From Acutalibacteraceae bacterium (GTDB taxonomy: Bacteria; Bacillota; Clostridia; Oscillospirales; Acutalibacteraceae), in assembly GCA_045134215.1 (NCBI GenBank), contig JBGUVH010000085.1, positions 1-32,716 of the forward strand: a stretch of DNA of 32,716 nucleotides, read 5' to 3'. The notes under the pieces were generated by a model. The model was not told where the DNA came from and made no database searches. It worked only from the letters and a program-made list of their open reading frames with translations. This document shows, piece by piece, positions 23,456 to 24,135 of the stretch. A program made the translations under genes and the position numbers. Within the stretch, counting starts at the first letter, position 1; every line of letters starts with the position of its first letter.

Positions 23456-23494
23456 AGCCTGATGTTTATTTAACTAAACATCAGGCTCGTTTTC
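23456..23494. terminator. argS intrinsic terminator, usable from both directions
   Basis: 13-bp perfect stem agcctgatgttta / taaacatcaggct with a 6-nt loop, followed by cgTTTTc on the plus strand. On the minus strand the tail is uugguuguug. Confidence 0.8.
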
Positions 23495-23500
23495 ATTAAG

Positions 23501-23521
23501 CAAAAAAGCACTCGCAAGATT
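23501..23521. repeat. Left copy of a perfect 21-bp direct repeat, caaaaaagcactcgcaagatt
   Basis: Identical to 24136-24156, with the flanking bases differing on both sides. This copy is an orphan half of the tsf terminator; the stop codon of the small lipoprotein gene overlaps it. Confidence 0.95.
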
Positions 23522-23936
23522 AATCTTTCACTTGTTTTTTTCTAACTAATTTAACCTTAACAGTTACTTTCCAAATAGCTATATTTCCATCATAACTTCC
23601 ATTATCCTCTACTACCTTTACTATAAAACTTGTACTTGCGCCATCTATAAGAGAAATGTCTATCCAACCATATCCCGTATCTGAATATTTATCATTTTCC
23701 GTAAATCGCACGTATATTGTAGCCTCTGCCCCAAGCGGTGCAGTAATTATATCACCGCTTTTAATATTTCTACCATTACAGGAGTAGTATTTAGACCATT
23801 CGTTACCCACTTTATTATTTTCATCACAAATAGAGTCGATTGTTATCTCATATTCCCCATGTGTGTAATTTTCCTCACAGGCGCACAAAGAAATCATAAT
23901 AACAATGGCTAACACTGTGCAAATTATCTTTCTCAT
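23520..23936 (-). CDS. Small hypothetical lipoprotein (138 aa)
   Basis: The ATG at 23936 gives MRKIICTVLAIVIMISLCAC, a signal peptide with lipobox-like LCAC. The mature part looks beta-rich. The track start at 23966 is a TTG buried in a terminator stem, so I rejected it. Confidence 0.7.
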   Translation of the reverse strand: MRKIICTVLAIVIMISLCACEENYTHGEYEITIDSICDENNKVGNEWSKYYSCNGRNIKSGDIITAPLGAEATIYVRFTENDKYSDTGYGWIDISLIDGASTSFIVKVVEDNGSYDGNIAIWKVTVKVKLVRKKQVKD

Positions 23937-23949
23937 AAAATACCCCAAT

Positions 23950-23975
23950 AAAAAAGCGTACTCCAAGGAGTACGC
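23950..23975 (-). terminator. Intrinsic terminator/attenuator inside the leader, 14 nt upstream of the lipoprotein ATG
   Basis: The minus strand reads GCGUACUCC-UU-GGAGUACGC followed by UUUUUU. The effective stem is ~8 bp with a 4-nt loop. Confidence 0.65.
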
Positions 23976-23977
23976 CG

Positions 23978-24100
23978 AAAAAGTGTTTGTCCTCGGTTAA
24001 TTGCGACATCAACCAAATTACCCAACGAGGAATAGAGGAAAACACCTTTTACCAAGATATCTTCCCTCGTTGGATACAAATTATTTAATTGATGTCGCAA
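23978..24100 (-). promoter_or_regulatory. Unclassified structured RNA leader (candidate riboswitch/attenuator or small RNA)
   Basis: 12-bp perfect closing helix (24001-24012 / 24089-24100) and an inner ~10-11-bp helix (24021-24033 / 24061-24074). The apical loop segment 24035-24050 can form 16 bp (one bulge, one G.U) with linker 23978-23994. Confidence 0.5.
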
Positions 24101-24104
24101 ACAT

Positions 24105-24133
24105 ATTTTACCACAAACAAACTGAAAAGTAAA
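24105..24133 (-). promoter_or_regulatory. Candidate extended -10 promoter driving the structured leader
   Basis: The minus strand reads TTTACT-17 nt-TAAAAT with TGg immediately upstream of the -10. The predicted start falls at the base of the 12-bp helix. Confidence 0.4.
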
Positions 24134-24135
24134 GA

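Follow-up and report, generated by a model that had tools for sequence, protein, structure and literature searches.

A previously uncatalogued family of structured, terminator-bearing RNA leaders in rumen and gut Clostridia

Several well-described bacterial systems place a structured RNA between a promoter and a terminator. In the terminator attenuators and riboswitch platforms of Firmicutes, such as the T-box leaders and the Ptet/orf12 leader of tet(M) in Tn916, the order is promoter, leader, terminator and gene, tandem copies occur, and the Tn916 attenuator sits ahead of a cargo gene. The c4 RNAs of P1 and P7 and the CI RNA of P4 are leader RNAs that pair between molecules and so control downstream termination or translation. 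In processive antitermination, represented by the lambda PR'-6S RNA-tR' unit with Q, N/nut, HK022 put, pLS20 conAn and LoaP, a constitutive promoter yields only a short terminated RNA unless the polymerase is modified. Here we describe an element of this general layout in a 32,716-nucleotide stretch of DNA, called the window below, from an Acutalibacteraceae bacterium (assembly GCA_045134215.1, contig JBGUVH010000085.1, positions 1 to 32,716). A promoter, a rod-like hairpin of about 100 nucleotides (nt), a conserved linker and a terminator occupy positions 24133-23950 of the minus strand, directly upstream of a lipoprotein gene. The evidence reported below gives good support to the conclusion that this element represents a real and hitherto uncatalogued family of structured RNAs in rumen and gut Clostridia, which belongs to a known general kind, namely a leader with a terminator. 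The likenesses to known systems that we draw rest on general knowledge of those systems.

All features of the element lie on the minus strand. A promoter scan recovered the sigma-70-type promoter that a preliminary description of this DNA had read as TTTACT-17-TGgTAAAAT, at 24133-24105: the -35 box TTTACT (24133-24128) is followed by a 17-nt spacer and by the extended -10 box TG-g-TAAAAT (24113-24105), which would place the transcription start at the base of the first helix, P1, at about 24100-24098. The 12-bp closing helix and the inner helix of that description are both present. P1 has 12 perfect base pairs (24100-24089 with 24012-24001) and reaches 18 bp when G.U pairs are counted (24100-24083 with 24018-24001); its 5' strand is UUGCGACAUCAA followed by UUAAAU (24083-24100) and its 3' strand AUUUGG followed by UUGAUGUCGCAA (24001-24018). 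A 6-nt 5' bulge separates P1 from P2, whose strands UAU-CCAACGAGG (24065-24076) and CCUCGUUGG-GUA (24019-24030) include the inner helix CCAACGAGG/CCUCGUUGG (24073-24065 with 24030-24022). By contrast, the apical loop of about 30 nt that had been placed above this helix is itself structured. In the minimum free energy fold it resolves into an 11-bp helix, P3 (24064-24054 with 24048-24038), whose 5' strand GAAGAUAUCUU (24054-24064) is purine-rich and linker-like in sequence, a pentaloop GGUAA (24049-24053; GGAAA or GGCAA in other copies) that caps P3, and a pyrimidine-rich 7-nt 3' bulge, CUCUAUU (24031-24037), which lies between P3 and P2 and is unpaired with a probability of 0.79. The rod, with a duplex length of 35-45 bp, is thus nearly continuous, with one bulge and no multi-helix junction.

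The linker CCGAGGACAAACACUUUUUCGG (23996-23975) starts 6 nt past P1 and runs straight into the terminator. Its strand B, CC-GAGGACAAACACUUUUU (23978-23996), contains a GAGGA that resembles a Shine-Dalgarno (SD) sequence and a run of five U, and the linker is half unpaired in the ensemble (probability 0.5). The intrinsic terminator announced by the preliminary description was recovered by a terminator scan as the helix GCGUACUCC/GGAGUACGC with six U at 23976-23950; the complete feature (23950-23977) comprises an invariant CGG, the stem GCGUACUC/GAGUACGC, a CUUG loop and the U6 tract at 23955-23950. The invariant TTTTT that precedes it may correspond to the TTNTTT motif of NusG-dependent pauses in Bacillus. 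The downstream gene (23520-23946), with the SD sequence GGGG at 23946-23943 and its ATG at 23936, 13 nt past the terminator end (23950), encodes a 138-aa lipoprotein with the lipobox LCAC. No promoter-like site was found by the scan of the window between the terminator and this ATG, and those found further past the terminator lie only inside the coding region.

The stability of this fold is far above that expected from composition. The minimum free energy of the window element is -66.1 kcal/mol, compared to -35.2 +/- 4.0 kcal/mol in 200 dinucleotide shuffles (z = -7.7), whereas the opposite strand folds to -46.8 kcal/mol only, so that the fold is strand-specific. A surplus in favour of the sense strand was found in all 36 of the copies compared, with a mean margin of 16.4 kcal/mol, which points to an RNA read from the sense strand rather than a DNA palindrome. 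A hidden coding region or leader peptide was ruled out, as stop codons occur in all three frames in 32 of 36 copies, and a conserved leader open reading frame (ORF) also by the distances between conserved blocks, which vary modulo 3.

In total, 40 distinct full-length sequences of the element were collected, from metagenome-assembled genomes (MAGs) of Acutalibacteraceae and Oscillospiraceae, from metagenomes and from three viral contigs. The lipoprotein of the window has only 2 clusters of homologues among 5.8 billion proteins, and both of the short contigs concerned bear the same upstream element. At the more distant of these two loci (51% protein identity), promoter, P1, P3 and linker are identical and P2 is rewritten with compensation, from CCAACGAGG/CCUCGUUGG to CUAGCAAGAG/CUCUUGCUGG. 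Beyond these homologues, a two-block pattern scan of GTDB species genomes returned 22 true loci and 1 chance match; the true loci all belong to MAGs that were obtained from herbivore gut samples and are named Acutalibacteraceae, Oscillospiraceae, "Ruminococcus sp." or "Clostridiaceae bacterium". A metagenome scan with different anchors added 15 loci and a scan of IMG/VR three, two of them from one virus. Two covariance models built here, R1 and R2, scored the pattern-found loci at 57-209 bits and delimited the window element to 23943-24106 (R1, 163.4 bits; R2, 164 bits, E 2.9e-35); R2, run with filters off, found no second copy in the window, which thus contains exactly 1. The models also recovered copies for which no pattern had been used: two upstream of SLOG homologues obtained by protein search (149.5 and 140.4 bits), and a strongly diverged one upstream of a lipoprotein gene (L019:5809-5995, plus strand, 38.4 bits), whose host MAG carries four consensus copies as well. 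In one MAG, JAZQAF, five copies are spread over three contigs, and two of the five form a tandem. In the tandem arrays L015:5168-5555 (minus strand) and L014:5410-5629 (plus strand), a complete element, terminator included, comes first, and a second promoter and element come immediately after it, ahead of the gene; the second copy of L014 is cut by the contig end. The taxonomic range of the family is narrow, and blastn found no match in PLSDB plasmids or GenBank phages.

Comparison of these copies gave strong support to the helices, as the preliminary description had proposed to check. The counts were made on an alignment of 36 sequences fitted to the covariance model and hence lean toward structure. 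With that qualification, standard pairs fill 96.4% of the pair cells compared to 80.7% in shuffles, 29 of the 41 pairs show changes on both sides, and the covariation score is 0.526 as against 0.199 in shuffles (0 of 500 reached it) and 0.04-0.14 in slid controls. Compensatory changes affect 12 of the 13 modelled pairs of P1, 9 of the 10 of P2 and 6 of the 8 of the terminator, where 100% of the cells are paired. For P1 and the terminator, the same compensation was seen in a comparison by hand and in RNAalifold on a plain MAFFT alignment. P3 is paired in 93.6% of cells across copies with a nearly invariant sequence. Likewise, an extended -10 promoter stands at a fixed distance from P1 in essentially every copy, so that the predicted start coincides with the P1 base. 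P1, P2 and the terminator therefore drift freely, whereas the P3 apex, the bulge, its neighbouring strand (strand A, below) and the linker are almost frozen, both across species and among copies within one genome. This opposition of a frozen core and drifting stems argues for a shared external partner. In agreement with the preliminary description, which could not match the leader to a class known to its author, none of the 4227 models of Rfam 15 matched anywhere in the window at the gathering threshold, and scans by E-value of the region and of nine other copies gave only sub-threshold terminator-like or hairpin-like matches that did not recur. No motif associated with DUF2493, DprA or lipoproteins is named in the main text of Weinberg et al. 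2017 (PMC5737381).

The layout from promoter to start codon recurs in nearly all copies, which supports the proposal of a novel structured leader or small RNA. In 36 of the 40 copies, a same-strand ORF with an SD sequence begins 10-35 nt past the U-tract, and in two further copies a second copy of the element takes the place of the gene. Eleven of the downstream genes encode a 138-aa lipoprotein of the window type, 12 YAcAr/DUF2493 SLOG proteins, 3 YpsA-like SLOG proteins (phrog_289), 4 cysteine-rich proteins of 55-78 aa, 2 proteins of 51-54 aa and 1 a helix-turn-helix (HTH) protein; a few copies precede other lipoproteins or secreted proteins. The SLOG domains correspond to Pfam PF10686 and PF06908. 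These are accessory genes of the mobile-element type, not a metabolic or transport set. At L034, the module precedes the cargo gene within an element that has a Tn916-type integrase and an excisionase, a position that the attenuator holds in Tn916; at L016 it has the same placement by resemblance to L034, the excisionase being confirmed for L034 only. One copy (L041) lies on a phage contig with a MazG gene, and another (L005) adjoins a Mob_Pre relaxase-like gene whose score, 22.9 bits, is below the Pfam cut-off of 25.5 bits. Beside the SLOG gene and the Mob_Pre-like gene of L005 there is also a gene with a JetD_C (Wadjet) domain (L005:4198-5415, minus strand), and mobilisation-type and defence genes are thus mixed at this locus. 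Ordinary chromosomal sites are occupied too, between tsf and argS, at serS and in the VanY-OAD region. The lipoprotein of the window belongs to no Pfam or PHROG family and is unrelated to the DUF4839 lipoprotein of the phage copy; its AlphaFold model is an 8-strand beta-sandwich (pLDDT 83) with only weak C2-domain-like matches in the PDB (TM 0.4-0.46) and no functional match.

The core contains a further complementarity, between the rod and the linker. Strand A, AAAAGGUGUUUUCCUC (24035-24050), consists of the P3 3' strand together with the first part of the bulge and has two complementary partners, the P3 5' strand and the linker: AAAAGGUGUUUUCCUC (24050-24035) can form 16 bp with GAGGACAAACACUUUUU (23994-23978), with one bulged C and one G.U pair. 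Across the copies, A:B is 97-98% paired as against 52-64% when slid, in an alignment that was not fitted to A:B, and double changes occur at 6 pairs in 13 cells (0 of 500 shuffles). Since about half of the A:B columns were fixed by the search patterns, these counts alone are modest evidence. Stronger evidence comes from the diverged copy L019:5809-5995, in which the rod, the U5-CGG and the terminator are retained along with a 3' bulge, here of 15 nt. Its strands A' (AAAAAUGCAU-GCUC) and B' (GAGU-U-AUGCGUUUUU) pair with -14.8 kcal/mol, a value equalled in 8 of 2000 shuffles, whereas crossing them with the consensus strands yields -3.6 and -8.1 kcal/mol only, compared to -18.5 kcal/mol for the consensus A:B. 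The complementarity is thus real, and it is fully re-created with different letters in L019. Among the consensus-type copies, the duplex energies of cognate and non-cognate A:B pairs were not separable because purine and pyrimidine tracts pair generically.

These results retain one part of the loop-linker pairing that the preliminary description had put forward as a pseudoknot or an alternative fold, namely the conserved 16-bp complementarity, and remove the other. The P1 base is joined to strand B by 6 nt only, with the bulge some 25 bp above that base, so that A:B cannot form as a pseudoknot on the intact rod, and the nested alternative is costlier by about 25 kcal/mol. A:B must consequently act after opening or processing of the rod, with the help of a factor, through its distal part only, or between molecules. 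The partner swap suggested earlier between GAGG-containing segments and UUCCUC copies received no comparative support.

Taken together, these data lead us to propose, tentatively and as a plausible rather than a probable account, that the element is a self-contained promoter-leader-terminator module acting as a factor-dependent, cis-acting transcription attenuator whose invariant core is read by a shared partner. The strong extended -10 promoter would start the RNA at the base of the P1-P2-P3 rod with its 7-nt pyrimidine bulge. By default, the rod would fold first and the terminator would stop most transcripts, yielding an RNA of about 150 nt. As no promoter of its own serves the downstream gene, which begins 10-35 nt past the U-tract, its expression would depend entirely on read-through. 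A trans-acting partner shared by the copies, a protein or an RNA more probably than a metabolite, would recognise the P3 apex, the bulge and the linker and determine how much read-through occurs; strand A, alternating in its pairing between the P3 5' strand and the linker, would be the switchable part. The generic layout of such an attenuator, with promoter, leader, hairpin and U-tract, and promoter-less co-oriented gene, was found in 36 of the 40 copies. We also count in its favour the placement of the module ahead of the cargo gene at L034 (and L016), and a YAcAr/DUF2493 SLOG homologue, P0017 (L044-L053, gene at about 1501-1896), that lacks the RNA leader and has a divergent HTH_26 gene 90 nt upstream, as if a protein repressor replaced the leader.

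Several observations weigh against this proposal. No conserved pairing that overlaps the terminator stem was found in the copies compared, and hence no antiterminator; the best partners of the terminator strands are inconsistent and reach -5 to -12.5 kcal/mol, as against -12 to -17 kcal/mol for the terminator itself. The nested fold in which A:B is enforced has -41.5 kcal/mol compared to -66.1 kcal/mol for the rod, a cost that makes an unaided intramolecular switch implausible. A linker hairpin, P4, is 95% paired with zero compensatory changes, hence without covariation, and overlaps only the GG of the terminator. Neither a trans factor nor a candidate antiterminator protein was identified. 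It should also be noted that the search patterns imposed part of the apparent invariance of the core, which the pattern-free copies L054, L064 and L019b nevertheless retain, and that a single copy (L007/L013) lacks a downstream gene and is followed instead by repeat units and a convergent gene. At L007:150-520, this orphan element is succeeded by three GC-rich REP (repetitive extragenic palindromic)-like units (GTAGGGAACGGGCTTGCTCGTTCCGCAAAAATAGCACAAA and similar).

As a speculative extension of this account, to which we attach little weight, the leaders may form a self-recognising RNA network in which abundant terminated RNAs of about 150 nt pair in trans with sister leaders. The exposed bulge and strand A of one RNA would pair with the nascent linker (strand B) of another, or the reverse, and thereby set termination or read-through; chromosomal, integrative-element and phage copies would all contribute RNAs, the set of accessory genes would be controlled jointly, and orthogonal A':B' variants such as L019:5809-5995 would define separate channels. 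If true, this would amount to a dosage- or kin-sensing riboregulatory circuit resembling the P4 CI and P1 c4 immunity RNAs, generalised to a host regulon.

The main competitor of the factor-dependent attenuator is a trans-acting small RNA of about 150 nt as primary product, read-through being a by-product or second output, an account we consider possible, though unlikely on balance. It would comprise a 5' rod with a protective role, the linker GAGGACAAACAC as a conserved seed in single-stranded form, a U-rich stretch, the terminator hairpin and a poly-U tail, and strand A might either cover the seed or bind sister RNAs. A promoter and a strong terminator of its own make the element an independent transcription unit, the half-unpaired linker is almost invariant while the rod stems drift, and the U5-hairpin-U6/7 layout is reminiscent of the 3' module by which enterobacterial small RNAs bind Hfq. 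Like known sibling small RNAs, the family has multiple copies, with tandems at L015 and L014; the orphan copy has no gene to control, and the orthogonality of the L019 strands to the consensus pair would be expected if pairing specificity matters between molecules. However, an independent small-RNA gene has no need of the promoter-less co-oriented ORF that follows within 10-35 nt in 36 of the 40 copies. No complementary target of A or B was found outside the elements in the window and about 334 kb of loci, too little sequence to decide, and pairing of strand A or B with the downstream ribosome-binding site was at background level, being no better than at 175 background sites. The families LhrC, Qrr and csRNA share with the element multiple and tandem copies, a conserved single-stranded segment, variable stems and their own promoter and terminator, but they are not systematically trailed by such a gene.

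The same conserved leader, terminator and covariation could belong to a small-molecule riboswitch in which the P3 apex, bulge and linker form a ligand pocket, for instance through a partial pseudoknot AAAAGGUG:CACUUUUU, and occupancy alters termination. An invariant core between variable stems and the tandem copies would suit it, 1 nt separates the 3' end of the A:B helix from the conserved G pairs of the terminator base, and the SLOG domains encoded downstream are nucleotide-binding folds, which might suit a nucleotide-derived ligand. We nonetheless regard it as improbable, since nothing competes with the terminator, the nearly continuous rod offers no junction or pocket-like architecture, few conserved nucleotides are unpaired, full A:B is sterically and energetically incompatible with the rod, the gene set (lipoproteins, cysteine-rich miniproteins, SLOG and HTH proteins) forms no coherent pathway, and several copies of the element lie in or near mobile-element or phage genes. 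The classical transcription-attenuating riboswitch of the preliminary description is thus unsupported, for want of a terminator-competing pairing, a cis pseudoknot and metabolic genes, and the alternative that it named, a leader bound by protein or RNA, agrees with the evidence better than a small-molecule switch does. Little credence can likewise be given to a constitutive 5' module, that is, an mRNA stabiliser or RNase III site with fixed low read-through, forming a portable expression cassette for accessory genes. The predicted start at the P1 base in all copies and the duplex of 35-45 bp agree with it, as does the presence of the cassette before unrelated genes, in or near mobile-element genes and on a phage contig, but it leaves unexplained both the near-invariant P3, bulge and linker amid drifting P1 and P2 and the compensated A:B complementarity. 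Finally, the element is a long imperfect palindrome, and some copies lie beside a relaxase-like gene or in a Tn916-type element, as might befit an element that functions as DNA, be it as a cruciform, as a single-strand origin, as an oriT-like site or as a mobile-element promoter of the single-stranded-DNA type. Such a function is very improbable: G.U pairs favour the sense strand by 16 kcal/mol in all 36 copies compared, the hairpin does not include the promoter and is followed by the terminator and SD sequence, and many copies occupy ordinary chromosomal sites such as tsf-argS and serS.

Compared to the systems introduced above, the element shares the order promoter, leader, terminator and gene, as well as the tandems, with the attenuators of Firmicutes and differs from them by having no competing antiterminator, no leader peptide and no match to the T-box or any other Rfam family. 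A T-box leader in particular was rejected: there is no match to RF00230 and no antiterminator, and the apical UGGN varies as G[G]NAA, which better fits a GNRA-like loop. As in the c4/CI immunity RNAs, a leader strand (A) is complementary to a downstream site (B), and a few copies lie on phage or mobile DNA; however, Rfam C4 does not match, strand B overlaps no ribosome-binding site that has a start codon, most copies precede single chromosomal genes, and action between molecules is here a proposal. Type III toxin-antitoxin systems (ToxIN) have the same order of promoter, structured RNA, terminator and protein gene, and an antitoxin RNA of this type was rejected because no tandem direct repeats were found within the RNA and the proteins encoded downstream are of diverse kinds, none of them an endoribonuclease toxin.

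With the processive antitermination modules, the element has in common a conserved element between promoter and first terminator, occurrence on phage or conjugative elements and a -10-like sequence in the leader, but there is no homology, the rod is much longer than the boxB or put stems, and most copies stand before a single small gene rather than a long operon. Concerning the -10-like sequence, the extended -10 region TGGTAAAATATGTTT (24099-24113) and the P3 apex TGGTAAAAGGTGTTT (24040-24054), both on the minus strand, are identical at 13 of 15 positions, a likeness also evident when the apex is written as TGGTAAAAG; GGTAAAA is retained in L019:5809-5995. Within the transcribed leader, such a sequence could act as a sigma-dependent pause signal.

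The family would add a new, well-supported class of structured RNA in poorly studied rumen and gut Clostridia, and it links one regulatory RNA to stand-alone SLOG proteins (DUF2493 and YpsA-like), orphan lipoproteins and cysteine-rich miniproteins, some of them on integrative elements or phage contigs. Its architecture is unusual, combining a terminator without visible antiterminator and a three-way complementarity (P3 5' strand, A and linker) unfit for a simple cis switch, and points either to a factor that binds RNA and promotes antitermination or termination, or to control exerted by sister leaders on one another as RNAs. Each of these, if true, would be a new mode of regulation for the accessory and mobile-element genes of Firmicutes.

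In the window, the element and its gene lie downstream of rpsB (25911-25138, minus strand) and tsf (25099-24188, minus strand), the latter being followed by its own terminator at 24169-24143. This terminator has a perfect 12-bp stem and is hairpin-like on both strands; the convergent argS has a separate terminator-like hairpin at 23456-23487 on the plus strand. Judged from the arrangement of these sequences, the two terminators together appear to frame the lipoprotein cassette as one inserted between tsf and argS. At another locus, L012:2188-2280 (minus strand) shows a sub-threshold Rfam match to t44 (27.8 bits, gathering threshold 44, E 0.027), which may be the rpsB leader upstream of rpsB-tsf.

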